A stretch of DNA of 64,000 nucleotides from positions 768,001 through 832,000 of the forward strand of contig OY771555.1 in the NCBI GenBank assembly GCA_963674785.1, read 5' to 3'. Positions 19,037 to 61,663 of the stretch are shown here, in pieces. Position 1 is the first letter of the stretch. Every line of letters begins with the position of its first letter. The translations under genes were made by a program, and so were the position numbers. The stretch is from Caldisericia bacterium. Lineage in GTDB: Bacteria > Caldisericota > Caldisericia > JAAYUI01. Under the pieces are notes generated by a model that did no database searches, was not told where the DNA came from, and was given only the letters and a program-made list of their open reading frames with translations.

Positions 19037-19072
19037 GTAAAACGATTCTTTGTCTTTTCTGATTCTGACCCT

Positions 19073-32899: not shown

Positions 32900-32901
32900 T
32901 T

Positions 32902-33324
32902 ATGCCACAATACTCAGAAACGGTAATGGATCACTTTAGAAACCCAAGAAATGTTGGGGAGATTGAAAATGCAGATGGAAAAGGAATGATTGGCAATGCC
33001 GTCTGTGGTGACCAGATGCTCTTCAACATAAAAGTCGATGAAAAGGGAATCATAACTGATGTAAAATATAAGACATTCGGTTGTGGTGCAGCAATTGCTG
33101 TATCATCCATGATTTCAGAGATGGCCATCGGAAAACACATTGATGAGGCGCTTGATATCACTACAAAACAGGTTGCAGAAGAGCTTGGTGGGCTTCCAGC
33201 AAACAAAATGCACTGCTCAAACCTTGGAAGTGCAGCACTTGCAAGAGCAATCAATGACTACAAAAAGAAAAATGGACTTCCTTATGAAGAGGTAGCAGAC
33301 CCGGAGGAAGAACACGAACACTAA
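32902..33324 (+). CDS. iscU: Fe-S cluster scaffold protein IscU/NifU-N
   Basis: YSETVMDHFRNPRNVG, CGD, KTFGCGAAIA and LPANKMHCS. Confidence 0.95.
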   Translation: MPQYSETVMDHFRNPRNVGEIENADGKGMIGNAVCGDQMLFNIKVDEKGIITDVKYKTFGCGAAIAVSSMISEMAIGKHIDEALDITTKQVAEELGGLPANKMHCSNLGSAALARAINDYKKKNGLPYEEVADPEEEHEH

Positions 33325-33332
33325 AACACTCA

Positions 33333-33440
33333 CGTCATTCCCGCGCCCCTCTACATCATTCCCGTGCCCCTCTACGTCATTCCCGGCTTGACCGGGAATC
33401 CCCTTCCCACGTCATCCCGCACTTGATGCGGGATCCAGGG
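33333..33440 (+). repeat. CGTC palindrome array: two 21-bp half-copies and two full copies
   Basis: Tags at 33333, 33354, 33375 (ATTCCCGG-CTTGA-CCGGGAAT) and 33410 (ATCCCGCA-CTTGA-TGCGGGAT-CCAGG). Confidence 0.9.
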
Positions 33441-33557
33441 TTGCTTCTGTTTCCTGACTTACTTAAAGATTAACTCTTGATACTGGGCGAGCAACGTCTC
33501 CAGACTTAAAAATTAGGCCTAAAAATCTTAGCAGTTTTTAATATAGAAATTTTTTAT

Positions 33558-33591
33558 AACCCACAGGGTTCTCTCATCCTGTGGGTTTTTT
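33558..33591 (+). terminator. Rho-independent terminator
   Basis: aacccacagg..cctgtgggtt followed by a T-run. Confidence 0.7.
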
Positions 33592-33656
33592 GGTGGACTC
33601 TTCTTATAAAAACTTCATGTTTTGTTATTTTTAATTTCTAGCATACAATATCATTA

Positions 33657-33917
33657 ATGAATGGCATCGACAGAAAATTCTGGCTAGCGTTTAAAAATGA
33701 AGAAAAAGACAAATCATTTATGCATCTTCACCTAACGCGAAAGAACGGAAAACTAAGATTTTGTGTGGGAGAAGCTACATTATTGATATGGTTTTTTGGT
33801 GCGCTGCTAGCAATTATCATATAACTTTTGGTTTATATCAATGACAACATGAACCAGATGATTGAGCGACTACATAATGAGGTGATAAATAGTGTTGATA
33901 ACAATAACGGGATTTAA
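33657..33917 (+). pseudogene. Small single-pass membrane protein ORF (~86 codons) interrupted by an in-frame TAA
   Basis: The hydrophobic stretch LLIWFFGALLAIII*LLVYI continues across TAA 33822-33824; TACAAT lies 7 nt before the ATG. Confidence 0.45.
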
Positions 33918-33961
33918 TAACCAAAAACTTTTTATGGGTGTCTAATATTTAAAGGAGAGAA

Positions 33962-35395
33962 ATGAGAAATAGATTAACGACATTATCTGTTTTGGTAGTT
34001 ACGAGTTTGGTTTTATATTTTGCTTTATCGGGATTTATATGTGAAATTCCATTTAACCCGCAGGAGGCAAATGCAGGGATTACTTCCTGCACCATAAGTA
34101 TCAAAAACCTCGATATGAAAATGGACTCTTTTGGGTTTCCACATATTTGTTACCTTGATAAGGCTGATAATGACAAAATTGGTATTTTTTATCTCAAATG
34201 GAATGGAAGGAATTGGAAAACTCTTACTGGGAAGAATCTAACGGATTTAGAAAATCTTGAGCCTATACAAACATTTACAGATATAAGATTCCTCAATTTT
34301 GACTTAGACACTGCAAACAAGCCTCATTTCGCCTGGTTTGATGGTGATAGATCTATAATATATTCAAAATGGGTCAAGAATGAGCTATCAAGTGACCCAG
34401 CAAATTCTATAGATATTTCAGTCAAAAATCCTGATGGGGAGGCCAGAGAGTTAAGAGAATTGTCATTTTCTCTTGATAATCACGGGATTCCTTATATTGC
34501 TTGGGTTGAATCAACTGCAATTGATAACATCTTTCTTCTAAAAAAAGTTAATCGCTCATGGATTGGTTATGAGGGAAGCACACCAAAGAACTTGTTGCCA
34601 TTATTTGTGAGGGAAAACCTTTGGGAGGAGAGGGATTTTAGAATCTCAGACATTGAGATTCATTTTGATTGTCTCAATCATCTTTTTCTCTTCTATTTGG
34701 ATGATCACATCCCAGCATACATTAAGATTTTTGGTGACGAACTGTTTTTTCCGATTCAATTCCTAAGTAGAAATACTGACTATGAGTACGAAGATGAGGT
34801 TATCTCAAGAGATTCAAAACTTGCATGTGCAATCAATCAAGTTGGAAACCCACATGTAATGTATGAAGCACAGACAAGGTATGAACCGACATTGTTCAAT
34901 ATGATGATTTTAATTGTGGATAATGGAAAAGATTTTATAAGCCCAAACCCGAGTGACCCCATTTTGCAAGAAAATGAAAACCAGATAATGAACACTTTCT
35001 ACACCACAAAATTCAAAGATGGTGAGGTTTTTGAGGATGAGATCGCCAAAATATCAGATATTGCTACTGATAATCATGGAACTACTCACATTGTTTGGAG
35101 TAAAAGGGGTTTGGATTCTGGTAGAATTCCTGAGATTGGATATGCAAAAACAAAGGGGGAGCAAGTGGTTTGTTTTGATGGAAGCAAATGGGACTCAAAG
35201 AAGGTTAACATTTCAAAATCAAAAACAACAATCTCTATAAACCCAAAGATAGAACTTGATAAGGCTGGATATCCAAACATATGTTGGATTGAAAAACCAA
35301 AAAATGCGAGACTTAGTTCGAGTGAAAAATACAGAAGCACCTTATGCTTCATGAGATGGAATGGCAAGGGTTGGGTTGTCCTTTCAGGAAAATAG
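33962..35395 (+). CDS. Secreted DxxGxPHxxW beta-propeller repeat protein
   Basis: SD aaggag; N-terminal hydrophobic segment; repeats DSFGFPHICY, DNHGIPYIAW and YLKWNGRNW. Confidence 0.78.
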   Translation: MRNRLTTLSVLVVTSLVLYFALSGFICEIPFNPQEANAGITSCTISIKNLDMKMDSFGFPHICYLDKADNDKIGIFYLKWNGRNWKTLTGKNLTDLENLEPIQTFTDIRFLNFDLDTANKPHFAWFDGDRSIIYSKWVKNELSSDPANSIDISVKNPDGEARELRELSFSLDNHGIPYIAWVESTAIDNIFLLKKVNRSWIGYEGSTPKNLLPLFVRENLWEERDFRISDIEIHFDCLNHLFLFYLDDHIPAYIKIFGDELFFPIQFLSRNTDYEYEDEVISRDSKLACAINQVGNPHVMYEAQTRYEPTLFNMMILIVDNGKDFISPNPSDPILQENENQIMNTFYTTKFKDGEVFEDEIAKISDIATDNHGTTHIVWSKRGLDSGRIPEIGYAKTKGEQVVCFDGSKWDSKKVNISKSKTTISINPKIELDKAGYPNICWIEKPKNARLSSSEKYRSTLCFMRWNGKGWVVLSGK

Positions 35396-35450
35396 CAATC
35401 CAACTCATTGAAAACATCCAAAAACAATATAGAATAACTCTGGTGAAAAA

Positions 35451-37040
35451 ATGGGGAAAATAAAAAGAATAACTATATTGGTGATTGTTTTTGTAGTATT
35501 AGTCATGCCGATTTCTTTGAGGGAAGACAGTTTTGCAATGAAGATGGCGAAATTGACACCAGGCAATGCAAACATCACACACAACAAACTCAACCAGGGA
35601 GAGTATTCATTTGCACTTGACAGCAAAGGTTTCCCACATGTTGTCTGGATAAATGGGATTCCTGAAAACATGGAAGAATACCTGACTGTAAGATACATCA
35701 GGTGGGATGGAGAAAACTGGGTTTGTATTGATGGCAGCCCATATGTCCCCGGTATCTCTGAGGAAAATGACAGGTCAATTGTAAATAATATTGAGAAAAA
35801 CTGTATTGACCCACAGATAGTTATTGATGCGGATGATAATCCACATCTGACTTGGGCTGAGCCTTGTAAAAACCTGGAACTGGAAACTTATACGTGGAAT
35901 ATTATCTATGTAAAGGGGTTTGGCAACCAATGGGTTTGTATGGATGGAAGTATCTTTGACCCCGATGATATGACAACTGATAATCCATCTGTTGTAAGTG
36001 TCCATAATGAAATAGCCTTTGAACCCAGATTAAAAATTGATAATGAAGGTAACCCACATATCCTATGGAAAAGTTATGGAGATTTTGATAAAGAATACAC
36101 ACATTTCCCTGTCGGTTTGATGTATGTTAAACAAAAGAAATCGAGATGGGTTACAGTAAATGGAGAAGAATACAAAAGCCCAAATGTTGTCGCTGGAAAT
36201 CCTGCTGTTGTCTGTGTTGGATTGTATTCGTCATATTGGCTTGATGTTGACCACCATTTTTGTCTGGATAGCAAAAACAGACCACATATCTGCTGGGATA
36301 ACGGGTTGCCACAAAAGGAATGTAAGGATGGATACTGCTATTATACCTGGGTTCCAGATGTGTTTTATTCACACTGGGATGGAAAAGATTGGGTTGATGC
36401 TGGAGGCATCAAATATGATAAAAGCAGTACTGAAAGGGGGAACGTGAGCAAGAATGATACCCCTTCATGTAGCCCGTTCGTAACACTTGATGAAGATGAT
36501 AACGCCCATCTTGTTTGGTATGATTATGTTTCTGAGGGCAGAATAGTTATTGCTTATGCGAAATGGAACGGGAAAAAATGGGTAACCACAATCAATACAA
36601 AATTCAGTGGGAATAACCTTTTTGATGGAAGTCCATCTGTAATTGACAAAACAAAATATTCAAAAAAACCTAGTCTATGCATCGATTCTACAAATAATCC
36701 TGTGGTTTCATGGGTTGGAAAAAACGAAGAAGAATCATATGAGGATTTTTATCTGATCAGATGGAATGGAAAAAAATGGGAAGATATCAACAGAGAAATA
36801 TATGAAAAAAATGATTTAACATCAGATCCATCAAACATCAGCAGAAGTTACAACATTCAACTTGAGACAAATTTCTGTCTCGATCAAAGTGATAATCCTC
36901 ATTGCCTCTGGCTCGAGGGTGCTTCTTCCAAGTCTAGTAGTTGCTATGGGATTTACGGGGATCTCTACTACATCCGCTGGGATGGAGAGAATTGGGTGAA
37001 TGCGTCTGGAGATGTTTATGAGCCGGTGGTTGAGGAATAG
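35451..37040 (+). CDS. Secreted DxxxxPHxxW beta-propeller repeat protein, paralog of 27630..29141
   Basis: Signal peptide; seven repeats such as DSKGFPHVVW..YIRWDGENWVCIDG. Confidence 0.8.
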   Translation: MGKIKRITILVIVFVVLVMPISLREDSFAMKMAKLTPGNANITHNKLNQGEYSFALDSKGFPHVVWINGIPENMEEYLTVRYIRWDGENWVCIDGSPYVPGISEENDRSIVNNIEKNCIDPQIVIDADDNPHLTWAEPCKNLELETYTWNIIYVKGFGNQWVCMDGSIFDPDDMTTDNPSVVSVHNEIAFEPRLKIDNEGNPHILWKSYGDFDKEYTHFPVGLMYVKQKKSRWVTVNGEEYKSPNVVAGNPAVVCVGLYSSYWLDVDHHFCLDSKNRPHICWDNGLPQKECKDGYCYYTWVPDVFYSHWDGKDWVDAGGIKYDKSSTERGNVSKNDTPSCSPFVTLDEDDNAHLVWYDYVSEGRIVIAYAKWNGKKWVTTINTKFSGNNLFDGSPSVIDKTKYSKKPSLCIDSTNNPVVSWVGKNEEESYEDFYLIRWNGKKWEDINREIYEKNDLTSDPSNISRSYNIQLETNFCLDQSDNPHCLWLEGASSKSSSCYGIYGDLYYIRWDGENWVNASGDVYEPVVEE

Positions 37041-37058
37041 AGAAGCTTATATCTTTCC

Positions 37059-37230
37059 CGTCACACCGCACCCTCTCTCCGTCACCCCGGGCGAAGACCC
37101 GGGGTCTAGGGTATAAAAGATCGTATTTGTTTTTGTCTGGTGAAGTAGTCCCTCTCTCAGTAAAAATTATTGAATAAATAATTCATACATCAAGAGTAAC
37201 CCTGGATTTCGGGTCAAGCCCGGAATGACA
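37059..37230 (+). mobile_element. ~150-bp MITE/REPIN-like element (copy 1, 37080-37230) plus a half-copy at 37059
   Basis: Inverted CGTC palindromes at both ends; interior similar to 39142-39291 and to the reverse complement of 61745-61893. Confidence 0.75.
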
Positions 37231-37320
37231 AAGGGTGTGGGATTGCATTCCTGTAAAACTTTTTTGAAACAAAACCCCCATCTCTTCTGTAATACTAGCA
37301 TACCATTTACTGGAGGAGAG

Positions 37321-38621
37321 ATGAGAAACAAACTGGGGATTACTCTTGTGCTTGTTTTATGTGTTGTGGCTGGGTTTTTTGTGGGGTGTGATATCGAAGA
37401 AACATCCCAAGTAAAAGATGTGAAAATGATTGTGGCTAAGTTCAATCGAGTTGGTTACGACAGATATGGAAGACCGCTTTCGGGAGATAATACTAACACG
37501 ATTAATGGTGTATTAGCCAATGATGAGATAAACAAATATGATAAATCCACGACAAAGGATGGTCACTATCCAATAGCAATTATTGACGAAAACGGAAACA
37601 TCTATTTTGTTGATGAAAAGGACACAACAACTTTTTGGGGAAAGGTCGAAGACACCTTTTTATACAGAAAATTCAAAGAAAAATCTTTTTGGGGAGAGGG
37701 TGTTGTAAGGATAAACACCTTAGATAAACCATGGATCAAGAATGGTCGATATATCCAAGGAGTATTTCATCACAAAATTGTAGATTCAGTTGAAAACTCC
37801 GAGTGGATAGAGGTTGAAAATCCAAATAATGAGTTAATATTCGTATTTATGAACCGGAAGAAAACTCGACAGATGAGGAGCAAGAAGGTGGAATCTTCTT
37901 CCCTTGGCAAAAGGATGGAGAAGAAATCTGGGGAAGAGCAGATGGGGAAGAGTCTTCAAAAATTGAACTCAAAGATGGCATATTCTTCCCTTGGCAGAAT
38001 GATGGCGAATCCTTGTGGCATGAGGAGGGTGATGACAAGAAATCCTCAAAGATTGAAAAATATATCGCAACAAGGTTCGCACCAGTCGGATATAGTTCGA
38101 GTGACATGGAACAATATCCAGATAAAGAAAGGACATTTGAAGCGGGAGGGACATATACGGGTTTTGGTCGAAGTGTTTCTGTTCCTCCTTATAATTTGAT
38201 TTTTAGAGATAAAAACTTCAACCATATCATAAAGAACTCCAAAGGTGATGTTTTCTGGACTGAACCAAAACAAGTACACATATCACCTGAGGAAGAGCTC
38301 TATTGGGTGACCTTTGAAATTGATAGAAACAAAAGAGACCACGTCACAGAAATTCATTCATTTCAAAATGTTGATAAGCAGTTAGAATTTTTTATTGCTG
38401 GTATCAGATGTATCATCTACCCAAGAGATTCGTATGGAGAGAAAGAACATCCACCTTTTATTACAGAAATAAGCAAAGAAACTGCAAATGAATGTAACTT
38501 TGCCTCAATCAATATTGAATATATTGAATCATTTGAGATCGATGGGGGCACTATTAAATTTAAGGAGTGTTTCTCAACTGGTGACATGACACCATTTCCA
38601 TCCTTTTATAAGGTTGATTAG
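37321..38621 (+). pseudogene. Lipoprotein related to the N-terminal domain of the giant surface protein; frameshift near 37833
   Basis: SD ggagg; lipobox FVGC; KFNRVGYDRYGRPL. A second frame opens at 37833 (VNIRIYEPEE..FPWQKDGEEIWGR) and runs into ORF 38013..38621. A sequencing error is possible. Confidence 0.7.
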
Positions 38622-38629
38622 AGATTGCT

Positions 38630-39013
38630 ATGAAGTGGTATAAAAATAGACAAAACATTTTGCTTTTGCTGGTTGCTTTGATTCTTCTTACCTCTGGATT
38701 ATTTACAGCTCATGAAAATCAAGATAATGATGATGCAGTTTTTGTCACTGTGAGATGGGCGCAAAACGGTAAAATCTGGAATGGAGACCAGATATTATAT
38801 CCTGATCCACGGGGCGATCCGTGGTCCCAGGAGAATAAATCAGGTGTAAAGCCTGTGGAACCGATTATTTTTGAGGAAACAGATCACAAAGTTGAGATAA
38901 ATGGAGTAATGTTTTCATTTTGGGAGGATGAGAATGGCTATATGTGGTTCAGAAAAGCAAGCCAAATGTACCCGACTCACGAACACCAGGATTCCAAATC
39001 AAGCCCGGAATAA
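38630..39013 (+). CDS. Small exported protein related to the giant-protein N-domain; stop codon lies inside a CGTC repeat
   Basis: Hydrophobic N-terminus; VRWAQNGKIWNG and EDENGYMWF; TAA 39011-13 falls within the repeat at 38986-39015. Confidence 0.6.
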   Translation: MKWYKNRQNILLLLVALILLTSGLFTAHENQDNDDAVFVTVRWAQNGKIWNGDQILYPDPRGDPWSQENKSGVKPVEPIIFEETDHKVEINGVMFSFWEDENGYMWFRKASQMYPTHEHQDSKSSPE

Positions 39014-39370
39014 CGGGTTTAAAAACCCTCCCTGACAGGGAGGGATGGTGACGAAGTCACCAGGGAGGGTTAAAAGATTTTCTGAGAACCAGGTCTTTCC
39101 TGTTCCCCGCACACTCTCTCTGTCGCCCCACACCCTCCCTCCGTCACCCCGGGCGAAGACCCGGGGTCTAGGGCACAAAAAAGCGTATTTGTTTTTGTCT
39201 GGTAAAATGATTTGACCAACATCAATAATTGCTGAATAAAAATTCATACATCAAAAGCAACCCTGGATTCCCGATCAAGTCGGGAATGACGAGGGATGGG
39301 ATTCCGGGTCACACTTCGGCACGTAGGTAAACTCAGTGTAAACCGAGCTCAGTGACCGCCCGGAATGATG
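38986..39370. repeat. Composite repeat cluster: CGTC copy, 60-bp CCCTCCCT double-hairpin element, 150-bp element (copy 2, 39142-39291), and a CGTC copy with a 46-bp loop insertion
   Basis: Read directly from the sequence; the module order is mirrored in inverted orientation at 61708-62010. Confidence 0.85.
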
Positions 39371-39432
39371 GATCGGGAGTTTAACATGATATTATCGTGT
39401 GGATAAATGGGGTGGAAAAATGTCGCAATTCT

Positions 39433-40431
39433 TTACGTATTCACCTCAGTTGGATAATATCTCATTTCAGCGTATGTGTGTTTGAAACCCATTCTCTCAT
39501 AGAGCCTTTTTGCGGGGTTGTTTTCCTCAACATGCAAGTAAACATCACCCTTTGTTATCTCAAGGGCATGATTCATTATTTGTTGTCCGATGCCTGCACC
39601 TCTCTCTGAACTATCAACACCAATAAAAAGAAGGCAATAACCGGGGATGTAGTTTTTCATTCCAGTTGCAAGCATGACAAGTGCACCAACAATCTGCCCA
39701 TCATTTTTAGCTAAGATTATGAACCCACCCTTGTCAGGTTTTCCAGTTAATGAATCCTTGATTCCCTGTTTGGTATAATCAGTCGAATCATCAAATGGTT
39801 CCATGTGTTCACAAAGAAATTTTGCAAGCTCATCAGAAGAGATATGTTTTTCGAGTTGAGAAAGTGATTCCACCTTAACAAGCTCAATATCAGTTTTCTC
39901 TGGTCTTAAAACCCTGTTTATGTCTGTTTCTGGTGTTGGTTCGGGTTCCGTGATATCACCGGTTGCAATGATTGGAGCAGCCCTAATATCCTCTGCTTCA
40001 ATCAAATTGTTCATCCGTTGAAATGAAGCCAAAATCATATTTTTTTGCCATTCATCAACGCTTTTTAGTTCTTCAAGCAAAATGTTTTGTAAAAGTGCAG
40101 GGTTGTTAGAAAGAATCTCATATCCAGCCTCTGCCAGTGAAACGATTCTGTCAGATTCAAGCTCTGACCCTTCCTCTATTTTTAAGATATCAATCCGGAC
40201 TAATCTGTCTATAATTTCTCTGACAACCTTTTTCGAAAGATCAAGCCGATTGCCGATAACTGATTCCTTCAAGGTTTCTTCATTTTTCAGCTCTTGCAAT
40301 ACAACAAGCTGAGCAACAGTTACTCCGTGCTTTTCTGCCAGTTTTGTTGAGTGTTTATCAACTGCCCGAATGAATCTTCGGATCTCAATTAATAAATCTG
40401 TTTCCTGGTCGTCGATGGATTCAATGCTCAT
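39433..40431 (-). CDS. MarR-type HTH fused to a GNAT N-acetyltransferase
   Basis: IRRFIRAVDKHSTKL..GVTVAQLVVL (MarR/EctR-like); IGVDSSERGAGIG and LHVEENNPAKRLYERMGF (GNAT). Confidence 0.85.
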   Translation of the reverse strand: MSIESIDDQETDLLIEIRRFIRAVDKHSTKLAEKHGVTVAQLVVLQELKNEETLKESVIGNRLDLSKKVVREIIDRLVRIDILKIEEGSELESDRIVSLAEAGYEILSNNPALLQNILLEELKSVDEWQKNMILASFQRMNNLIEAEDIRAAPIIATGDITEPEPTPETDINRVLRPEKTDIELVKVESLSQLEKHISSDELAKFLCEHMEPFDDSTDYTKQGIKDSLTGKPDKGGFIILAKNDGQIVGALVMLATGMKNYIPGYCLLFIGVDSSERGAGIGQQIMNHALEITKGDVYLHVEENNPAKRLYERMGFKHTYAEMRYYPTEVNT

Positions 40432-40547
40432 AGTAAGTCCCCCTAACTACGGGATCACATTGTAACACATTAAAAACACTGTTTATTAAACTATCTTAAA
40501 TTCAATATTTTTTGGGGTTGTGGGTCTTGCCAGCACCATTCTCCCAT

Positions 40548-40755
40548 CATCATTCCCAGTTCCTCCCCGTCATCCGGTCTTTCCTCCCTTGTTATTCCCA
40601 GCTTGACCGGGAATCTCTATCCCTCGTCATCCCAGGGATTGCTGAGTGTGCCGAAGTATGATTGGACGTCTCCCTCCCCCGTCATTCCTGCCTTTACCTC
40701 CCCGTCATTTCCGTCTCCTTCCCCCCGTCATTCCGCACTTGATGCGGAATCCAGG
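40548..40755 (+). repeat. CGTC palindrome array, left flank of gene 40840
   Basis: Tags at 40548, 40568, 40590, 40625, 40680, 40703 and 40726; the innermost copy is full (ATTCCGCA-CTTGA-TGCGGAAT-CCAGG). Confidence 0.88.
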
Positions 40756-40839
40756 GTTTATAAATGTCGCATTAGACAATGGGTGGGGTTTGTTATAGAA
40801 TGGTTGCTTGAGAGTTTGGAGTATAAATAAGGAGGAATG

Positions 40840-41430
40840 ATGGAGAATCATGATGAAAAGGTAGAAAAAACTTTACCAAAGCTAGATCTAGGTACTGATA
40901 TATTTGAAGCCTTTACCTCTTTACCCAATCTTATTGCTGTTGGAAAAAAAGCTTTTGATATTGGTACAAAAGTAAAAGAATGGCGAGAATATAGAAATAT
41001 CCAAGGATTGTTGTCGCAAACAACAATCGCTTCGGAGAGAGCAAAAACTTGTTTTAAGGAAAAACTCAAAGATCCAAAGTTTGTCGAAAAAACAATGTGT
41101 AGGCTTTTAGTGATTGTTAAGGGTTTTGACCAAGACGAAAAATCGATTTTTTGTGGAAAGGTATTTATTCACTATCTTGAGGAAAAGATAAACATTGATG
41201 ATTTTTGGGAAATTATTTATGCACTTGAAAAATGTTACTTTGATGATCTGAGATTGTTGAATGAAAACACAAATGAAAAATTCCAACCTGATTGGGAAAA
41301 ATTTAATAGACAAAATCAACAAGTATATTCAAGGCTTGTCGGTGCTGGAATTTTTGGTGTGAATGTATACGATGGATCAATGTCTAGAATAGGCTCTAGA
41401 ATAATTCACATTATGAGAGACGTTCTATAG
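40840..41430 (+). CDS. Hypothetical AT-rich protein, repeat-flanked cargo
   Basis: 196-197-aa ORF with SD aaggagg and promoter TAGACA-N17-TAGAAT inside the cassette; the start may be 40837. Confidence 0.75.
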   Translation: MENHDEKVEKTLPKLDLGTDIFEAFTSLPNLIAVGKKAFDIGTKVKEWREYRNIQGLLSQTTIASERAKTCFKEKLKDPKFVEKTMCRLLVIVKGFDQDEKSIFCGKVFIHYLEEKINIDDFWEIIYALEKCYFDDLRLLNENTNEKFQPDWEKFNRQNQQVYSRLVGAGIFGVNVYDGSMSRIGSRIIHIMRDVL

Positions 41431-41447
41431 CCTTTCATCTCCAAACT

Positions 41448-41521
41448 CCTGGATTCCCGATCAAGTCGGGAATGACAAGATGGAGAGTGTGAGGAATGCG
41501 TAAAGAAGAGTAGGAATGATC
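41448..41521 (-). repeat. CGTC palindrome and two degenerate half-copies, right flank of gene 40840
   Basis: cctggattcccgatcaagtcgggaatgaca, then ggaatgcg and ggaatgatc at +23 and +21 bp. Confidence 0.85.
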
Positions 41522-41579
41522 GTGGGAGATACCCAGGAGGACAAGACATGACTGAGGAGTGCTACGCAAGCTGGAGTAG

Positions 41580-42017
41580 TTACCTCAACTCCGGAATCTC
41601 CTGCGGCAGATTAATCTTTACAAACCTTCCCTTGCTCTTTGCAACCAGATTTTCGCCATCATCAAGATCAACAATCTCTGCTTCAGTTTCAATAACCCTG
41701 CCACGTTCAGAAACAATTTTTCCTGTGATTTTGATATTTCTGCCAACCCTTAAAGGTGCTACAAATCTGACAGTCATCTCGGCTGTCACAACAGTTGCAT
41801 CTCGGTGTCTGAAGATTGCGTGAGACATAGCCTCATCAAGCATTGTTGAGACTATCCCACCGTGGATGATGTCATCCCACCCCTGGTGTTTTTTTTCTGT
41901 GACAAAGAGTGCCTCAACAGAATCATCAAGCGTTGCAAACCTTAGGTGAAGTCCGTCTTTGTTTTGCTCACCACATGCAAAACAGTTTGAGTCAGTTCCA
42001 GTATAATTTTTATCCAT
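41580..42017 (-). CDS. PaaI-family hotdog-fold thioesterase
   Basis: CFACGxxNxxGL and HQGW..IHGGIVSTMLDEAM. Confidence 0.9.
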   Translation of the reverse strand: MDKNYTGTDSNCFACGEQNKDGLHLRFATLDDSVEALFVTEKKHQGWDDIIHGGIVSTMLDEAMSHAIFRHRDATVVTAEMTVRFVAPLRVGRNIKITGKIVSERGRVIETEAEIVDLDDGENLVAKSKGRFVKINLPQEIPELR

Positions 42018-42018
42018 T

Positions 42019-42435
42019 TTATTTGTTCTTTATCTGAAGGCCAATGTGTACAACATGAATGCACTCATCTGTCACAAGGTCGATTCCGGCTTCTTTGATC
42101 TCCCTCTCAACCTCTTCATTATGAATCTCAAGCTGAAGCCAAACACATTTTGGTTTTACAGCCAAAGTTTCAGGCAGGATTTCGGGCAAGAAAGCTGATG
42201 CACGGAAGACATCTAAAATGTCAATTTTCTCAGGCACATCACTTATGCTTGCAACGATTTCTTGTCCGCCAATCTCCTTACCGGCATACATCTTGTTGAC
42301 TGGATAAACTGTATATCCCTTTTCAATAAGGTGTTTCGTGATTATATGGCTTGTGCGCTCTGGGTTTGTGGATGCACCATAAACGGCGATCACCTTTGCG
42401 TCTGTCAAAATTCTTCTTAAGTCTTCTTTTTCCAT
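42019..42435 (-). CDS. CoA-binding protein (YccU-like)
   Basis: IAVYGASTNPERTS, VYPVN, DILDVFR and VWLQL. Confidence 0.9.
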   Translation of the reverse strand: MEKEDLRRILTDAKVIAVYGASTNPERTSHIITKHLIEKGYTVYPVNKMYAGKEIGGQEIVASISDVPEKIDILDVFRASAFLPEILPETLAVKPKCVWLQLEIHNEEVEREIKEAGIDLVTDECIHVVHIGLQIKNK

Positions 42436-42533
42436 GATGTCCTATGTAATACCCTTCTTTAGGAAAATTTCAAGCAACTTTGATAGGAAGTTCCTTGAAA
42501 AACATTTCAACATCTGTAATTTCATGTGATGAA

Positions 42534-44366
42534 ATGAAACTCGAAGAACTGAAATCGCCTGCGCAGTTGAAGGAAATAACAAATGGGAAACTTGACTCGC
42601 TGGCAAAAGAGATAAGACAAAAAATAATTAAGACAGTTGCAGAAACCGGTGGTCATCTTGCAAGCAACCTCGGCATCACAGAATTAACAATAGCACTTCA
42701 CAAGGTTTATGATTCACCGGCCGATAAGTTCATATTTGATGTTGGACATCAATGTTATCCACACAAACTTCTGACCGGAAGATATGAGATGTTTGATACT
42801 CTCAGGAAAACCGGTGGGATGTCAGGATACCCACATCCATCAGAGTCTCCCCATGACCACTACCATACAGGACACGCCTCAACCGCACTCTCGCTTGCAG
42901 CAGGCGAGGTCTTGGGTAGGAAGCTTAAGGGTAAAAATCACCATGTTGTTGGTATTGTTGGTGATGGCAGTTTGACTGGAGGCGAGAGCTTTGAAGCTCT
43001 CAATCATCTTGGTTCACTTGGCGAAAATGTGCTTGTGATTCTCAATGATAATCAGATGTCGATTTCACCTTCTGTTGGTGCATTGTCGCTTCTGACAAAT
43101 AAATTCAGGGCGTCACTGACATATCGAGCTGTCAGCAGAAATATTGGCAATTTCCTCTCAAAATTGGGCGGATTTGGTGAGTGGGTTGTTGGAGTCGGAA
43201 TCAGAATAAAATCTGCTCTCAAGCGAATCCTTATGAAAAACCAATATTTTGAGCAACTTGGTTTCAGATATTATGGGCCGATTGATGGTCACAACATTGG
43301 TCTGATGGTCGCCTTCCTAAAAAGAATAAAAAAAATGAAGGGGCCAATTCTTCTTCATATCATCACAAAAAAAGGCAAAGGTTACAAATACGCTGAGGAT
43401 GGTCCAACAGAGTTCCATGGCACACCTCCATTTGAAAAAGGCAATGGTCACAAAGCAAAAAGCTCAAGAAGCTATTCAAAAGTTTTTGGCGAATCACTGG
43501 CTGCTCTTATGGAAAAAGATGACAGGATTGTTGCGATTTCATCAGCCATGGTTGAGGGAACTGGACTATCTATTCCTAAATCAAAATTCCCAAAAAGAGT
43601 AATAGATGTTGGAATAGCCGAACCCCACTCTGTCTCGCTTGCCTGTGGACTTGCAAGCGCCGGCATGAAACCGGTTGTTGCACTCTATAGCACGTTTCTC
43701 CAGCGATCATTTGACCAGATTATTCATGACGTGTCGCTCATGAAACAGCCTGTTGTTTTTGCAATTGATAGGGCGGGTGTTGTGCCAGCTGATGGCCCAA
43801 CACATCAGGGAATCTTTGACCTATCGTATCTTTCGATGATTCCAGACATGACCATCATGGCACCATCAACAAGCTCTGAGCTCGATGAGATGTTGAAACT
43901 CGCATTTTCACTTGGAAGCCCCGTAGCAATCCGCTATCCAAAAGACAAATCCAATGAGGCAGATGAACCTGCAGAAGTCAGACTCTTTAAAGCAAAAAAA
44001 GAGCGAAGTGGTGAAAACGTTTTGGTTTGCTACATCGGTGCTGTCAGCCTGCAGGTGCATGCAGCAGCGTTACTTCTTTCACAAATCGGAATCGAGTGCG
44101 AGGTTTTAAATCTCAGATTTGCAAAACCGATTGACTGGGAATCCGTGAAAAATTCAGCCGAAGGGAAAAAGCTTGTGATCACCGTTGAAGATGGCATCAT
44201 CAGCGGCGGAGTTGGCGAAAAAATCAAAGCAGAACTAACAGACACAAAGGTCGTAAACATAGGTGTTAATGACGAAATCCCTCCTGTTGGCACACGAGCT
44301 GAGCTTCTTGCAAGATATAACCTTGATTCCGCTGGGATTGCTAAGGTTATTCAGGAGAATGTTTAG
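42534..44366 (+). CDS. dxs: 1-deoxy-D-xylulose-5-phosphate synthase
   Basis: GGHLASNLG, FDVGHQCYPHK, GDGSLTGG..LNDNQMSIS, DVGIAE, YSTFLQR and DGPTHQG; start placed at MKLEELK. Confidence 0.96.
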   Translation: MKLEELKSPAQLKEITNGKLDSLAKEIRQKIIKTVAETGGHLASNLGITELTIALHKVYDSPADKFIFDVGHQCYPHKLLTGRYEMFDTLRKTGGMSGYPHPSESPHDHYHTGHASTALSLAAGEVLGRKLKGKNHHVVGIVGDGSLTGGESFEALNHLGSLGENVLVILNDNQMSISPSVGALSLLTNKFRASLTYRAVSRNIGNFLSKLGGFGEWVVGVGIRIKSALKRILMKNQYFEQLGFRYYGPIDGHNIGLMVAFLKRIKKMKGPILLHIITKKGKGYKYAEDGPTEFHGTPPFEKGNGHKAKSSRSYSKVFGESLAALMEKDDRIVAISSAMVEGTGLSIPKSKFPKRVIDVGIAEPHSVSLACGLASAGMKPVVALYSTFLQRSFDQIIHDVSLMKQPVVFAIDRAGVVPADGPTHQGIFDLSYLSMIPDMTIMAPSTSSELDEMLKLAFSLGSPVAIRYPKDKSNEADEPAEVRLFKAKKERSGENVLVCYIGAVSLQVHAAALLLSQIGIECEVLNLRFAKPIDWESVKNSAEGKKLVITVEDGIISGGVGEKIKAELTDTKVVNIGVNDEIPPVGTRAELLARYNLDSAGIAKVIQENV

Positions 44367-44376
44367 AGAACATCCC

Positions 44377-44490
44377 CGTCATGCCAGACGGTTCCTGGGC
44401 CTGTCGAAGGTCGAAGCATGACCGGGCATTCTCTCTCCCCGTCATTCCAGACGGGTGCTGAGCTTGTCGAAGCATGACCCGGAATCCAGG
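44377..44490 (+). repeat. Two CGTC palindromes, each with a GGT..CTGAGC..GTCGAAG insert in the loop
   Basis: Inserts at 44390-44418 and 44453-44474 replace the first T of the CTTGA loop. Confidence 0.8.
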
Positions 44491-44662
44491 TCTTGATAAT
44501 GAGATGCAAATAATACTCTAATCCACACAGCTTTTGAACATGTTGTTCGGGCTTAAATCTATTAATTCAAAGTTTATAAAAACTTAGAATTTGACGTTCT
44601 GAGCTGTTCTTATATCATTTTGACAGAGGTATACCCAACTATAAGGGGGGTAGAAAAAGAAT

Positions 44663-45217
44663 ATGAAGAAATATCGAATAAATATGTTTTTCATCGTATT
44701 AATTGCAGTTATCTGTTTGTCATCTGGGCTAATTTCATGTAGGCAGAAATCATATCAAGAGGTTAACGACATTGATTATGATGTAAGTATTCTTATTCCA
44801 GATGGAATGACTGAGGAAGAGTGGATGGATTCAACTTTGTTTGTTGAGTATGAAATTCCTTATACGGGTCAAAACTATTACTCAGAATCAAAGGGCGAAG
44901 CGATAAGCACAACCGAATATTTGTTTGTACACAAAGTGCTTAAATACACAGGAAAAGAACTCAAAGAAACAATTAAACAGTATGATTATCTTTCAAAGCT
45001 AATATTTAAATGGCAATGCCAGTTTGATGTATTAAACGACAAAGTACTCTCATACTGTAGCCACGAATATATTGACCAATGGGTTGAATACTTTTTTTCA
45101 GAAATCAGAAAAGTTGCCACAGATTTTGATATCACTAGCTTTGAAGATCTTGAATTATCAATTCGATATTCATATTTTGATGTTCCACCAATGGATTCAG
45201 ATTTTTGGAGAAAATAA
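44663..45217 (+). CDS. Hypothetical lipoprotein, repeat-flanked cargo
   Basis: Signal peptide with lipobox-like LISC; AT-rich. Confidence 0.7.
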   Translation: MKKYRINMFFIVLIAVICLSSGLISCRQKSYQEVNDIDYDVSILIPDGMTEEEWMDSTLFVEYEIPYTGQNYYSESKGEAISTTEYLFVHKVLKYTGKELKETIKQYDYLSKLIFKWQCQFDVLNDKVLSYCSHEYIDQWVEYFFSEIRKVATDFDITSFEDLELSIRYSYFDVPPMDSDFWRK

Positions 45218-45966
45218 GAAAACCAATCTACCCCTGGCAGGTGTTGAACAAACGCAAAAGGGAGCGGCTCTGGACAGCCCTATCATATGAGATAACATCA
45301 GAGAAGATATTATTTTTTAGGGAAGAGCTGCAGAGAAAAACAGCAGAGTTCATAGGCTCAAGCAAAGACTGCCTCATGGAGAATCTTGAGCGTGAGATGC
45401 TCCGTACTCATTGGCACAGAACACTCGAGATTCTTGAGTTTGTACTTACTTCTGAACCCAGAATCGACCCAGAGATTTTTAATAAAATCCTTGAGGAAGA
45501 GGATTCACACTTCAGGTTTTATCCGCAAGAGGGGATTTTCAGGGAGCTCAAAAATACATATGATGATGGGAAAATCGAGGCAGCTCTAAGTGAGACAAAA
45601 CACAAGCTTCCTGAGATTCATGATAGAATAATTACATCATTGAAGCTATACGCTGACCGAAAAAACCCAGACAGGAAAGCAGCGATCATCACAGCATTTT
45701 CTGCGGTTGAGGACATGCTTGATAAAGTCACTGGAAAGAAACCCACAAGAGCCCAAATTGAAGAGGTCTACAGTAGCATTGTCCCTGGTGATGGTGATTT
45801 GAGGAAAGTGTCACTTCTGACTCTGCTTGAGCATGTGGAGCGGGAACGTGGAATCCACAAATGCTACCGTCAAAAGAAACTCAGCAAATCAAAGCTTTAC
45901 ACATTTTCATTTATTTCTGCTTGTTGTAGGGTAATTTCTGATTTGATTGAGAGTTTAGATTCCTAG
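45205..45966 (+). CDS. AbiJ-NTD4-like / HEPN-associated protein (putative defence), repeat-flanked cargo
   Basis: The pattern RERLW..WHRTLEILEF..FNKILEEEDSHFRF..IEAAL..LYADRKNPD..AFSAVE matches my recollection of this family. The TTG start is uncertain, and the stop lies inside the flanking repeat. Confidence 0.55.
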   Translation: MEKIRKPIYPWQVLNKRKRERLWTALSYEITSEKILFFREELQRKTAEFIGSSKDCLMENLEREMLRTHWHRTLEILEFVLTSEPRIDPEIFNKILEEEDSHFRFYPQEGIFRELKNTYDDGKIEAALSETKHKLPEIHDRIITSLKLYADRKNPDRKAAIITAFSAVEDMLDKVTGKKPTRAQIEEVYSSIVPGDGDLRKVSLLTLLEHVERERGIHKCYRQKKLSKSKLYTFSFISACCRVISDLIESLDS

Positions 45967-46075
45967 ATCCCGCATCAAGTGCGGGATGACGGGGTGGGAG
46001 TGCGGGATGACGGGGTGGGAGTGCGGGATGACGGGGTGGGAGTGCGGGATGACGAAGGAGTAGATGAGAATGACG
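45962..46075 (-). repeat. CGTC palindrome followed by 21-bp tandem half-copies
   Basis: agtgcgggatgacggggtggg x3 (45978-46040) plus a partial copy; GACG ends at 45991, 46012, 46033, 46054 and 46075. Confidence 0.92.
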
Positions 46076-46094
46076 AGAAAAATCCCCAGTTAAT

Positions 46095-46380
46095 CTAAAA
46101 TCTCACAAACCTCAACCTAATCGCATTTAAAACAACCATGATGGATGAAAGTGCCATAGCACCAGATGCAATCATTGGATTCAAAAGAATGCCCTGAGGA
46201 TAAAGGATTCCTGCTGCAACAGGAATGGTCAAAACATTATAAAAGAACGCCCAGAAAAGGCTCCATTTGACATTCCTGTTTGTGGCTTTTGCGATTTTCA
46301 TCGCATCAATGACAAGGGATAAATCCTCTCTCATCAAAGTGATTGAAGAGGCATCAAGAGCAAGCCCTGTTCCGCCAGAT
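46095..46380 (-). pseudogene. Duplicated 3' fragment of copA
   Basis: 286-bp direct repeat of 47037-47322 with about 12 mismatches by hand alignment. Confidence 0.92.
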
Positions 46381-46637
46381 TACATATTCAATAATCCAGT
46401 TATGTATTCTAGATTAAATGAATCTTCTTTTAACTTATTTTACATAACATGCTTTCATATACATATATGGTTTTAGAGTCATAATTTTGTATAACTTAAC
46501 TATTAATTACTCTTTTGACTATAACTCATAAAATTAACATCAAGTTATTATAATATAATCTTATGTTAATTCAATTTTAGTTTTAATTACTGCCCTAATA
46601 ACCACAATTTGAGCACTTAAACAAAGGAGGCTTTTGG

Positions 46638-47042
46638 ATGAGAGAAAACATTGGCGGAGTAAACTTGTCACTTTCAAGTAGAATACTAATTTCGATTATG
46701 TTGTTGATTTTTATTTCCACAATTTTCATTATTGGGTATATGCAAAACTGGTTTGTGGGATCAATTAGTTTGTGGAACACTCTCTGGCCAGGGTTATTGT
46801 TTGTTTGTGGCCTTGGGTTGGTGTTTCTCTTCGCAGATTACCATGAAAGTGTTCAAATTCGAATAACAGGATTGTTTTGTATAGTCATAAGCATATTCAG
46901 GACTCTATTTAACTTTGGATCAGTTAATAGCTCTGTTTGGTTTTGGGTTTGGGTTATCTCAGTAGGTATTATTGCTATTTCACTCGTTTTCGTTCGATTT
47001 AAGAACTTAGATTTAAAGCTTGATTTTGAGCACGATCTATAG
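46638..47042 (+). CDS. Small four-TM membrane protein
   Basis: SD aaggagg; four hydrophobic segments; LWP motif. Confidence 0.72.
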   Translation: MRENIGGVNLSLSSRILISIMLLIFISTIFIIGYMQNWFVGSISLWNTLWPGLLFVCGLGLVFLFADYHESVQIRITGLFCIVISIFRTLFNFGSVNSSVWFWVWVISVGIIAISLVFVRFKNLDLKLDFEHDL

Positions 47043-49313
47043 TCTCACAAACCTCAACCTAATCGCATTTAAAACAACCATTATGGATGAAAGTGCCATC
47101 GCACCGGATGCAATCATTGGATTCAAAAGAATTCCCTGAGGGTATAAAATTCCTGCTGCAACAGGAATGGTCAAAACATTATAAAAGAACGCCCAGAAAA
47201 GGCTCCATTTGACATTCCTGTTTGTGGCTTTTGCGATTTTCATCGCATCAATGACAAGGGATAAATCCTCTCTCATCAAAGTGATTGAAGAGGCATCAAG
47301 AGCAAGCCCAGTTCCCCCAGATGGAGCAATCGAAACATCAGCTGTGGCAAGTGCAGGGGCATCATTTACACCATCACCCATCATTGCTGTTTTGCTATCT
47401 TCTGAAAGCTTTTTTAATACATCAAGCTTTTCATCGGGCAGTACCTGTGAATAAACTTGTTTTATTCCAAGTTTTTCTGCAACCGACTCACAGACCTCTT
47501 TTCTGTCACCAGAAAGAAGCACCGGGTGGATTCCAGCCTCTTTGATGAAATCGATAAGCTCTTTTGCACCATCCCTGATTTTATCAAGCAAACCAAAACC
47601 ACCCAAAATCTCAGAATCAGAAATCACATAAAAAACCGCCTCATCTTCATCAAACCCACCAGCTAGCGAAAGTGGAATGTCAAGCCCCAATTTTTGGAGT
47701 AAACGTGGGCCACCAACATGGATGGTTTTCCCATCAACATTTGCCTTTACACCAAGCCCAGGAAGAGCTTCAAAATTTTGGGCTGGAAGAGGATTTATGC
47801 TTTTTTCATTTGAGTATTTTCTGATAGCCTCTGCAAGTGAATGCTCAGAGCCGGTTTCAGCAGATACTGCAAGTTGAACCATCTCTTTTTTTGTACCTGA
47901 AACCACAAGAACACTGTTTACTTCAGGTCTTCCAACTGTCAGTGTTCCAGTTTTATCAAACACGAAATTCTTCACTGAAAGAAGTGTCTCAAAGGCAACC
48001 GCATCCTTTATCAAGATTCCTTTTCTTGATGCAATACCGAGTGCAACAGAAAGTGCCGTCGGAGTTGCAAGTCCAAGCGCACATGGGCATGAAATAACAA
48101 GCACAGAGATCGATGTCAAAACTGCAAGGTGAGGATTTCCAAGCAACCACCAGATATTGAAAGTGGCGATAGCCACTGTAAAAACTGATGGGACAAATAT
48201 TGCCGCAATCTTATCAACCATCTCCTGGATTTTTGGTTTTGAAGACAATGCGGAAGAAACCATCTCAACAACCCTCGAAACAACAGTTTCAGAGCCAGTT
48301 TTTTCACATCGCACTCTGATTGTCCCAAAACCGGTTGTTGCACCTGCAAAAACCTTGTCCCCTGCTTTTACTGGTACAGGAATAGATTCCCCAGTGATGC
48401 TTGCATTGTTTATCTCTGTCTCACCCGAGATCACCACACCATCTGCTGGGATTCTTTCAGCAGCTCTTACAATAACTTCATTTCCGGTTTTAAGTTCGGA
48501 AGGATTTATGTCATTTATCAGTTCACCAACTGCAATGTGTGCGACCTCAGGAAGTAGACTTGCGACATCAAAAACATCTTTCATTGCAGTTAGTTCTGAT
48601 TTTAGTCTGATGTAATGACCAAGGGATACGAGCATCACGATCATTACTGCACCTTCGATGTAGAGGATTCCACCCGTTACATTTGGATTTAGAAGTGACA
48701 CTAGAGAAAAGGAGATTGAGGCGGCCACACCAAGCGATACGAGTGTGCTCATGTTTGTTTGTCTGTTTATTGCCTGCTTTACCGTTTCTATAAAGAAATG
48801 TCTGCCAGGAACAGCAACAACAAAAACCGCCAAACCAAACAATACCCAATTGACCCAATCTGGGAATGGAATAACAAACATCTGATACATCGAAAGAAAA
48901 ATCACGAGAATTGAGGGGATTACGCCCATGAGCAGATTTTTCCCAGTTTGCCTAAAATCTCTTATTTTCAGCTCTCTTGCGGCATTCAGGATATTTTCTC
49001 CTGAAGCTACTTTTCTTGGTTTATATCCTGCTTTTTCAATTGCTTTTGAAATCTCACCAATGCTGACTTTTTTTGCATCATATTCTAGTTTTGCCGTGCC
49101 CGATATGTAGGAGACCGAAACATTTTTCACGCCGGGAAGATTTTCTAAAACTCGAGTAACACTACCTGAGCAACCACTACACATCATTCCTTCAACAGAA
49201 AGTCTGATTTCTTGGTTATTGCTAGTCGAATCAATTGCATACTTTGTTTTTCCTGGTCTGAAAAAAACCCAGATAAAAATCACTATAAAAACACTAAAAA
49301 AAACTAGATACAT
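47037..49313 (-). CDS. copA: Cu(+)-translocating P1B-type ATPase
   Basis: GMMCSGC HMA domain, TGES, CPCALGLATP, DKTGTLT, GDGVNDAPA, YN and MALSS; start placed at MYLVFF after aggggg. Confidence 0.9.
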   Translation of the reverse strand: MYLVFFSVFIVIFIWVFFRPGKTKYAIDSTSNNQEIRLSVEGMMCSGCSGSVTRVLENLPGVKNVSVSYISGTAKLEYDAKKVSIGEISKAIEKAGYKPRKVASGENILNAARELKIRDFRQTGKNLLMGVIPSILVIFLSMYQMFVIPFPDWVNWVLFGLAVFVVAVPGRHFFIETVKQAINRQTNMSTLVSLGVAASISFSLVSLLNPNVTGGILYIEGAVMIVMLVSLGHYIRLKSELTAMKDVFDVASLLPEVAHIAVGELINDINPSELKTGNEVIVRAAERIPADGVVISGETEINNASITGESIPVPVKAGDKVFAGATTGFGTIRVRCEKTGSETVVSRVVEMVSSALSSKPKIQEMVDKIAAIFVPSVFTVAIATFNIWWLLGNPHLAVLTSISVLVISCPCALGLATPTALSVALGIASRKGILIKDAVAFETLLSVKNFVFDKTGTLTVGRPEVNSVLVVSGTKKEMVQLAVSAETGSEHSLAEAIRKYSNEKSINPLPAQNFEALPGLGVKANVDGKTIHVGGPRLLQKLGLDIPLSLAGGFDEDEAVFYVISDSEILGGFGLLDKIRDGAKELIDFIKEAGIHPVLLSGDRKEVCESVAEKLGIKQVYSQVLPDEKLDVLKKLSEDSKTAMMGDGVNDAPALATADVSIAPSGGTGLALDASSITLMREDLSLVIDAMKIAKATNRNVKWSLFWAFFYNVLTIPVAAGILYPQGILLNPMIASGAMALSSIMVVLNAIRLRFVRL

Positions 49314-49366
49314 CCAGCAACCCCCTGCTTGACGAATCATCAATCTCGATATAGAATTAACCTGTT

Positions 49367-60221: not shown

Positions 60222-60251
60222 TGTCATTCCAGACTTGATCGGGAATCCAGG
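60222..60251 (+). repeat. CGTC-type palindrome, left flank of gene 60345
   Basis: tgtc-attccaga-cttga-tcgggaat-ccagg. Confidence 0.85.
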
Positions 60252-60344
60252 ATTACTTTTGGTTAATACGTTTGAATTCGACAAGACAATTTGTTTGATG
60301 TAAAATAAACCCCGCTATTAAGAAATCATTGGTTGGAGTGAAAA

Positions 60345-61610: not shown

Positions 61611-61663
61611 GACTCTAGGGATTGAACCTTTATCTCATGCTTCCTTCGGTGCGAGCCACTTCC

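Follow-up and report, generated by a model that had tools for sequence, protein, structure and literature searches.

The DNA analysed here is a window of 64,000 nucleotides (nt) from a Caldisericia bacterium (assembly GCA_963674785.1, contig OY771555.1, positions 768,001 to 832,000 of the forward strand). Its focal unit, at 40727-41476, is an AT-rich gene for a protein of 197 amino acids (aa), flanked by two inward-facing hairpins of the NTS/SRM type, the repeats that accompany the small nuclease SsnA. The original prediction, made from the sequence alone, had drawn this bracket at 40726-41477 around an orphan gene and had taken it for one of several exchangeable cassettes or recombination hotspots. 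The bracket itself was recovered, with its hairpins at 40727-40755 and 41448-41476. The hairpin arms measured 29 nt each, were 86% complementary and stood 692 nt apart, and partial copies of the outer arm were found on both outer sides (40548-40720 and 41477-41521). From left to right the locus reads as follows.

40548-40720, + strand: outer-arm partial copies preceding the bracket, with one degenerate hairpin among them (40591-40615)
40727-40755, + strand: left hairpin, NTS/SRM type, tail CCAGG, DNA fold -9.5 kcal/mol, z -3.9
40762-40780, + strand: 19-mer just inside the left hairpin, carrying the TAGACA of a promoter-like site
40837-41430, + strand: 197-aa cargo gene, G+C content (GC) 0.32, no family match
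41448-41476, - strand: right hairpin; half copies run on to 41521, followed by the 3' end of the thioesterase gene

The 197-aa protein gave zero matches in Pfam, NCBIfam and PADLOC, and in a large protein collection the sole match among the candidates scored was to itself. The promoter-like site upstream of this open reading frame (ORF) matched 10 of 12 positions, and the number of such sites was not above chance.

Hairpins and nuclease of the Ssn system

The original prediction had placed a nuclease gene in a bracket of the same kind, and such a unit indeed exists. It encodes a 96-aa single-domain GIY-YIG protein (PF01541 over residues 5-77, E 2e-15; score 57.3 bits, cut-off 22.6), in which no other Pfam domain was found.

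19158-19185, + strand: left hairpin, variant GTCTTCCCCG-TGTA-GACGGGGAA-CCAGG, fold -8.5 kcal/mol, z -2.9; half copies upstream at about 19070-19150
19262-19552, + strand: ssnA-like gene, 96-aa single-domain GIY-YIG nuclease, PF01541
19593-19620, - strand: right hairpin, an exact match to the published NTS consensus CGTCATTCCCGCGMAVGCGGGAATCYRG

According to the main text of the published description, SsnA is a 94-aa GIY-YIG enzyme that binds to the oriented NTS hairpin only when the DNA is single-stranded, its cut falling a few nucleotides upstream of the hairpin; NTS-like repeats (SRM) surround ssnA homologues across many phyla, and NTS copies are clustered near genes (Chenal et al., 2025, Nat Commun 16:2388, PMC11893778). 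The repeats of the window are NTS/SRM hairpins and the 96-aa protein is, by its sequence, an SsnA homologue with predicted activity, because it is a single-domain GIY-YIG protein, its gene lies between inverted hairpins, one of these matches NTS exactly, and gene and repeats co-occur. Exact copies of the consensus numbered 2 in the genome, including the one beside ssnA, and none turned up in the reversed control. Furthermore, an all-versus-all comparison of the ORFs of the genome left the 95-96-aa ssnA ORF, present in three places, as the sole multi-copy gene adjoining the repeats. The copy at genome 302680 also has inverted hairpins on either side, as does the ssnA copy of a sister genome, G001. 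The third copy (genome 732742-733021) has a frameshift after residue 74 and is hairpin-flanked nonetheless. Y7, Y18 and E65 were invariant among 14 aligned ssnA homologues; judged by position, they are probably equivalent to the catalytic residues Y6, Y17 and E64 of the Neisseria enzyme. NCBIfam returned sub-threshold matches only, and no solved structure matched the 96-aa nuclease by sequence.

The genome analysed (G000) was compared with G001, G002 and G003 of the same genus and with G004 and G009 of the same family. When a strict hairpin pattern was searched in 41 genomes, it was found 42 times in G000, 125 times in G003, 7 times in G001, once in G039 and not at all in the other 37, nor in the reversed control. 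Close ssnA matches were present in G000, G003 and G001 and absent from G002, so within the genus three of four genomes have both gene and repeat and G002 has neither. Three further genomes (G015, G021 and G029) carry ssnA-like genes with 0 matches to the strict pattern, the only motif searched there. The nuclease shared 72-78% identity with proteins of Planctomycetota metagenome bins, compared with 65-71% with the copies of its own genus, which suggests horizontal spread between phyla.

The hairpin repeat has the general form CG-TCATTCC-N4-CTTGA-N4-GGAAT-CCAGG. In the window, a loose pattern (GTCATTCC-N11-GGAATC, at most 2 mismatches) matched 12 times, whereas 100 shuffles gave 0.56 matches on average and never more than 3, and a structure-based scan of the whole genome returned 73 hairpins against 2 in the reversed control. 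In most copies the CGTCAT head, the CCAGG or CTAGG tail and the CTTGA loop were kept while the inner stem varied. The stems are preserved via compensatory changes: pairs 6-22, 9-19, 10-18 and 11-17 each showed at least 2 Watson-Crick pair types and were paired in at least 20 of 22 distinct copies. Four hairpins folded as DNA gave -8.3 to -9.5 kcal/mol (z -2.9 to -3.9).

Inward pairs less than 250 nt apart include 40 of the 88 catalogued hairpins. The double-hairpin elements are about 170 nt long, with two unlike ends and a related core of about 95 nt. In an alignment of 20 such elements from G003, similarity was bounded exactly by GTCATTCC and GGAATGAC and the ends were sharp; these 20 elements had no target duplication or direct repeat outside and no copy-specific inverted flanks. 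Half copies in the same orientation lay within 150 nt on the 5' side of a hairpin in 26 cases and on the 3' side in 10, and 22 of the 88 hairpins had at least one half copy upstream. The published cut site is on the same 5' side, and, speculatively, the outer-arm half copies may be repair scars.

As to their distribution, 82 of the 88 catalogued hairpins lie within 0.3-1.1 Mb of the genome and the remaining two thirds of the chromosome are nearly hairpin-free. The hairpin-rich region spans the point, at about 0.67 Mb, where the cumulative GC skew is lowest, the putative replication origin. A second repeat family, CCCTCCCTG-N-CAGGGAGGG together with GGTGACGAAGTCACC, has copies at 39002-39080 and 61929-62007 (79-nt arms, complementarity 87%). 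It frequently adjoins Ssn hairpins and was found beside several elements elsewhere in the genome.

The enzyme-repeat system itself is already published. As far as the main text of that work describes it, the likeness includes a GIY-YIG gene of about 95 aa between inverted oriented hairpins, a CGTC head and C-Y-R-G tail (with one copy identical to the NTS consensus), tens of copies clustered near genes, membrane-protein genes among them, and the co-occurrence of gene and repeat (Chenal et al., 2025). Unlike the published case, the repeats here mostly have a CTTGA loop and a variable inner stem, form double elements of about 170 nt and half-copy arrays of the outer arm, and enclose candidate defence cargo. 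The name Caldisericota is absent from the main text of that paper, whose supplementary genome lists may include this lineage. Our literature search from 2025 on for SsnA, NTS and GIY-YIG found this work only. A search for GIY-YIG enzymes with repetitive extragenic palindromic (REP) repeats found no linking literature, and one for GIY-YIG with miniature inverted-repeat elements gave no bacterial repeat element, as judged by title and the start of the abstract.

Gene slots beside conserved genes

The repeats mark gene slots whose content differs among related species. In both G002 and G003 the block order is SMC-fumA-fumB / thioesterase-CoA-dxs / MerR-iscS-iscU, and the part from thioesterase to iscU is also common to G009 and G004. 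In G000 the three blocks are reordered with their orientations kept, and hairpin clusters are found at every break. Slot by slot, the content is as follows.

dxs 3' slot: in G000, a bracketed lipoprotein gene and a PDC-S32-like gene; in G003, an unrelated 141-aa lipoprotein gene flanked by two direct double-hairpin elements; in G002 and G004, empty, about 94 nt and about 147 nt respectively
Thioesterase 3' slot: in G000, the 197-aa gene; in G003, a Type ISP restriction gene; in G002, 434 nt
Peptidase/pyrG slot: in G000, hairpins, a DUF4917 gene and hairpins; in G003, a hairpin, a 386-aa gene and a lipoprotein gene; in G002, that lipoprotein gene only
typA 3' end: a double-hairpin element in G000, G003 and G001, with different content beyond it in all three; not found in G002
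SMC/fumA junction: in G003, a hairpin, a 682-aa gene and an element; in G000 and G002, uninterrupted

Empty sites or different cargo were thus seen in relatives where the original prediction had proposed to look for them, at dxs, iscU, fumarase and the thioesterase, and these housekeeping neighbours were verified by Pfam. Junctions were conserved in relatives for 0 of 8 hairpin-bearing and 11 of 11 hairpin-free loci, and the Fisher p of 1.3e-5 overstates the contrast and is indicative only, since the loci were picked for carrying repeats and compared with 2-4 relatives. The five cargo proteins tested shared only 22-42% identity with their best matches in sister genomes; the flanking genes were 65-84% identical to those of G003.

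The orientation of the hairpins followed the type of gene beside them. Hairpins stand mostly just 3' of the stop codons of conserved genes and their CCAGG side faces AT-rich accessory genes. The resulting pattern is a conserved block, a hairpin pointing out, accessory genes, a hairpin pointing back and the next conserved block. Genes on the CCAGG side had a mean GC of 0.359 (31 gene sides) and those on the other side 0.400 (67 gene sides; Mann-Whitney p = 2.6e-5), a non-random relation to AT-rich genes as the original prediction would have it. Outside the double elements, 21 of 36 hairpin regions had their AT-richer gene on the 3' side (Wilcoxon p = 0.026). The orientation signal was visible solely relative to gene type.

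In 24 of the 36 regions the 5' side of the hairpin adjoined a gene's 3' end in sense orientation, as would be expected if the hairpins worked in RNA, terminating the transcripts of the conserved genes upstream or stabilising their 3' ends. However, such a role is extremely improbable: no T run directly follows the stems, no terminator-like site was called in 40400-41650, 12 of 36 hairpins are next to 5' ends, and the published enzyme is described as binding DNA, not RNA (Chenal et al., 2025).

The other units of the window, with gene calls from a greedy ORF map, comprise the following features.

33376-33439, + strand: two tandem hairpins directly 3' of the iscU stop, facing AT-rich propeller-protein genes (33962-37040)
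37081-37229: double-hairpin element copy 1 (+ hairpin, about 95 nt, - hairpin)
39143-39290: double-hairpin element copy 2, a direct repeat of copy 1 at a spacing of 2,062 nt
44379-44490, + strand: two long-loop hairpin variants directly 3' of the dxs stop codon
44663-45966, + strand: cargo, 184-aa lipoprotein and 253-aa protein
45962-46082, - strand: right hairpin (45962-45990), then 4-5 tandem 21-nt half copies (array 45978-46082)
60223-60251, + strand: hairpin directly 3' of the fumarase beta stop
60345-61610, + strand: cargo, 421-aa lipoprotein, GC 0.31
61664-61892: degenerate - hairpin (61664-61690), + hairpin (61709-61733) and double-hairpin element (61746-61892)

These units agreed with the predicted brackets to different degrees. 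The unit expected at 44440-45991 with a lipoprotein and an AbiJ-like gene was found at 44441-45990, where a long-loop hairpin is followed by ORFs of 184 and 253 aa, a hairpin on the - strand and the array of 21-nt half copies. For the bracket drawn at 60222-61689, the left hairpin and the lipoprotein gene held up, but the right-hand palindrome of the unit (60223-61690) is degenerate and lacks a CCAGG tail. The looser unit drawn at 33410-37230 is present at 33411-37229, but it is loose indeed, and its right end belongs to one end of a double-hairpin element of about 170 nt. That element and its direct repeat at 39143-39290 enclose ORFs at 37225-39013. In the tandem array 45978-46082, outside the full hairpin, the 21-nt unit consists of the hairpin outer arm and a C-rich spacer. 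The long-loop variants, at 44379-44490 and at genome 311422, 379473, 676150 and 678281, share a conserved insert of about 25 nt (GCTGAGC..GTCGAAGCATGA) between their arms.

The cargo falls into lipoproteins, candidate defence genes and orphans. For example, the 253-aa protein matched the PADLOC candidate defence family PDC-S32 (E 9.8e-18), and the PDC-S32-like gene of G003, 26% identical to it, lies inside its own inward-facing bracket. Two bracketed genes at genome 503 kb and 513 kb encode DUF4917/PDC-S21 proteins with a mutual identity of just 24%; the G003 relative of the DUF4917 protein has a hairpin on one side. The gene at genome 296.8 kb encodes a Type ISP restriction-modification enzyme, and lipoprotein-type signal sequences were read off the translated N-termini of several other cargo genes. 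The cargo had been predicted to be AT-richer than its surroundings, and the mean GC of 7 bracket interiors was in fact 0.338, compared with 0.391 for the genome, and 4 of the 7 ranked among the lowest 3.2% of equally long random stretches. The 386-aa gene of G003 (L067 6750-7910) adjoins the hairpin in the peptidase/pyrG slot. Its N-terminal FIYRG stretch is reminiscent of FRG-domain proteins.

Proposed recombination at the slots and competing explanations

We regard it as rather probable that the repeats are the borders and recombination substrates of accessory slots with fast turnover, and that SsnA cuts may stimulate the exchange; the recombination mechanism and the part of the nuclease in turnover are what we infer. 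Dispersed hairpins and elements would provide portable homology for ordinary homologous recombination. Circular DNA could insert by a single crossover at a resident repeat, leaving direct repeats around the insert, and ectopic exchange from repeat to repeat would relocate whole gene blocks. SsnA nicks in exposed single strands beside hairpins may stimulate these events, which could also be modulated by SsnA attacking transforming strands as they enter.

Three inserts flanked by direct repeats were found, at 37081-39290, in the dxs slot of G003 and in an ATPase duplication at 46093-47322. Inserts between direct repeats are what a circle leaves behind after a single crossover with a resident repeat. 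In the last case, the 3' end of a P-type ATPase gene is directly duplicated over 288 nt (96% identical) around 654 nt of AT-rich DNA, which holds a 134-aa membrane-protein ORF (46638-47042). This duplication looks like the single-crossover insertion of a circle bearing the gene's end.

Alternatively, the hairpins and elements may be selfish and simply settle or survive in the long stretches of AT-rich, dispensable intergenic DNA that are usual around newly acquired genes, with no role in turnover. Such passive accumulation agrees with the intergenic position of 61 of 69 hairpins, with copy numbers among the sister genomes that fit an expanding selfish repeat, with the horizontal spread suggested by the nuclease's closeness to Planctomycetota, and with the Type ISP gene of G003, which occupies a variable slot with hairpins neither within it nor at its ends. 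However, it leaves unexplained why the 5' side sits at conserved gene ends and the 3' side points toward AT-rich genes, why three inserts are flanked by direct repeats and why hairpins stand at both new junctions of each block rearrangement. Furthermore, three species have retained the element 3' of typA, and the DNA past it has changed. We consider passive accumulation unlikely, and recombination at the repeats remains our preferred explanation.

Several observations weigh against this preferred explanation, in addition to the choice of loci behind the Fisher value and the hairpin-free Type ISP slot of G003. Consecutive gene-enclosing hairpin pairs were inward in 4 cases, outward in 6 and tandem in 7, so that inward pairs were not enriched. 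The sister genomes are distant (dxs 65-77% identical), and filled and empty sites could therefore not be aligned base by base, so that either the repeats or the cargo may have come first. Contigs of four public runs over 31500-49500 all break at the repeats and gave no informative junctions, speaking neither for excision nor against it; none of five runs on record was of RNA. The joints in the four runs, 19-67 nt long on their short side, resemble cross-matches among repeat copies, and one contig, from the probable source sample, covers 39323-46007 without differences. Moreover, the in vivo effect demonstrated for SsnA in the published description is only a lowered integration of NTS-bearing transforming DNA in Neisseria, not a promotion of recombination (Chenal et al., 2025). 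The original prediction had supposed that a single-strand nuclease possibly initiates the exchange; the tie between the repeats and such a nuclease was borne out, but the published effect argues against the initiating role.

A stronger form of the idea makes SsnA and its hairpins a nuclease-driven platform for cassette exchange, in which nicks beside hairpins exposed as single strands would lead to breaks, these would be repaired from another hairpin-bounded locus, and the interior, be it defence genes, lipoprotein genes or ssnA, would be copied or swapped. If true, cassette exchange would be gene shuffling without a recombinase or transposase, within and between genomes. We think this improbable, and neither a new gene-capture machine nor a new mechanism is established.

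In a further explanation, which follows the published Neisseria model and which the lowered integration of NTS-bearing DNA fits, the hairpins would insulate the cargo. With inward hairpins, SsnA would cut outside the cargo on whichever strand comes in, that strand would lose a homology arm, and the bracketed genes would be shielded from replacement by transformation. From the sequence and the published cut site, the inward geometry does place the cut beyond the cargo whichever strand is taken; the genome has homologues of comEC and dprA, and surface lipoproteins belong to the cargo, as they do in Neisseria. However, the bracketed slots here are the most variable and not the most stable ones. 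Of 14 control genomes, 10-11 have comEC and dprA as well, so these genes do not show competence, and donor DNA without the cassette would have no hairpins and remain uncut. An insulating role thus appears quite unlikely.

The original prediction also implied that cassettes move as units, and on this point the data gave it no support. If hairpin pair and interior were moved or copied together by SsnA, they would resemble insertion sequences with passenger genes; in the published text the hairpin-gene-hairpin layout of ssnA is likened to that of insertion sequences (Chenal et al., 2025). Our own data offer some agreement: ssnA is itself bracketed at three genomic places, the focal bracket and the ssnA unit at genome 303 kb have identical inner flanks on the right (AAACTCCTGG), and unrelated or distantly related cargo is bracketed in two species. 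Nevertheless, no second cargo copy at 60% identity or more was found in the genome, where only ssnA and the duplicated ATPase fragment are multi-copy, and the 20 aligned G003 elements had sharp ends without target duplications. Searches for close relatives of three cargo proteins found none, in genome contigs for the DUF4917 protein and the 421-aa lipoprotein and in metagenome contigs for the PDC-S32-like protein. Around the G001 homologue of the 197-aa gene there are zero hairpins within 10 kb. We know of no transposition activity in GIY-YIG single-domain proteins. Mobility of the cassettes as units is not shown, and we judge it very unlikely.

The 197-aa gene may illustrate another course of events. 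A six-frame search with its protein gave a frame in G001 that was 24% identical with one internal stop, a weak match in G002 and nothing in G003. The G001 homologue lies directly 3' of a homologue of the Type ISP gene, and in G000 the 197-aa gene and the Type ISP gene (296757) each have an exact copy of the 19-mer 40762-40780 upstream, the only 2 in the genome. Because of this adjacency in G001, the common 19-mer and the thioesterase 3' slot that the Type ISP gene fills in G003, we give about even chances to the 197-aa gene being a former downstream partner of the Type ISP gene at the thioesterase slot. Repeat-mediated recombination would then have shifted the large Type ISP gene to 296.8 kb, where it is currently flanked by two direct hairpins, while the 197-aa gene stayed beside the thioesterase. 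We do not think that the 197-aa gene was captured as a unit.

Known systems and meaning for the Ssn repeats

The layout resembles REP/REPIN-RAYT systems in that a small nuclease gene is flanked by inverted hairpins that are also dispersed intergenically, singly and as inverted doublets. The enzyme here is of the GIY-YIG type and not a Y1 (HUH) transposase; PF01797 had 0 matches in the genome, and the control search was positive in 6 of 14 genomes. A partner of the IS110 type was rejected as well, with 0 Transposase_20 matches in the genome. As in integrons, different small genes occupy one chromosomal place, and to this extent the integron-like outcome that had been predicted was seen. Unlike integrons, there is no adjacent integrase, the pairs are inverted where attC sites have one orientation, and the cargo genes, in contrast to promoterless cassettes, seem to carry upstream regions of their own. 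No integrase was found among the 41 window ORFs scanned (a 3035-aa ORF was left out), and the sole tyrosine recombinase gene of the genome (PF00589), at 1,885,391, is about 1.08 Mb from the focal bracket. Mobile insertion cassettes and composites of miniature elements (MITEs) carry non-transposase genes between inverted ends or two direct copies of a miniature element. Unlike these, the units here showed neither target duplications nor a parent insertion sequence nor any sign of having moved, and no multi-copy transposase-like ORF was found in G000.

The closest precedent for the exchange of flanked genes comes from Neisseria. In the arrays of neisserial intergenic mosaic elements (NIME) described there, dRS3 repeats flank RS elements, and exchange or insertion of array-flanked genes was proposed earlier; in that description the arrays were not seen outside Neisseria at the time (Bentley et al., 2007, PMC1797815). 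The flanked-gene exchange idea of the original prediction was therefore already set out for that genus. In our genome, the dRS3-type pattern ATTCCC-N8-GGGAAT had 8 exact matches, compared with 0 in the control. Going by the published account, the likeness to NIME extends to hairpin repeats with 50-150-nt spacers, arrays beside surface-protein genes, more divergent flanked genes, and arrays that stay syntenic while their content changes (Bentley et al., 2007). Unlike NIME, the arrays here are short, and the evidence is cross-species synteny, not allele exchange between strains.

The 2025 description left the role of Ssn outside Neisseria open (Chenal et al., 2025). Our analysis adds a comparative Ssn case from a distant lineage, in which hairpins coincide with synteny breaks and with variable slots for lipoprotein and candidate defence genes. 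It agrees with the older, so far proposal-level idea from Neisseria that repeat arrays promote the exchange of the genes they flank, and dxs, the thioesterase, pyrG and typA offer concrete slots for study at the population level.

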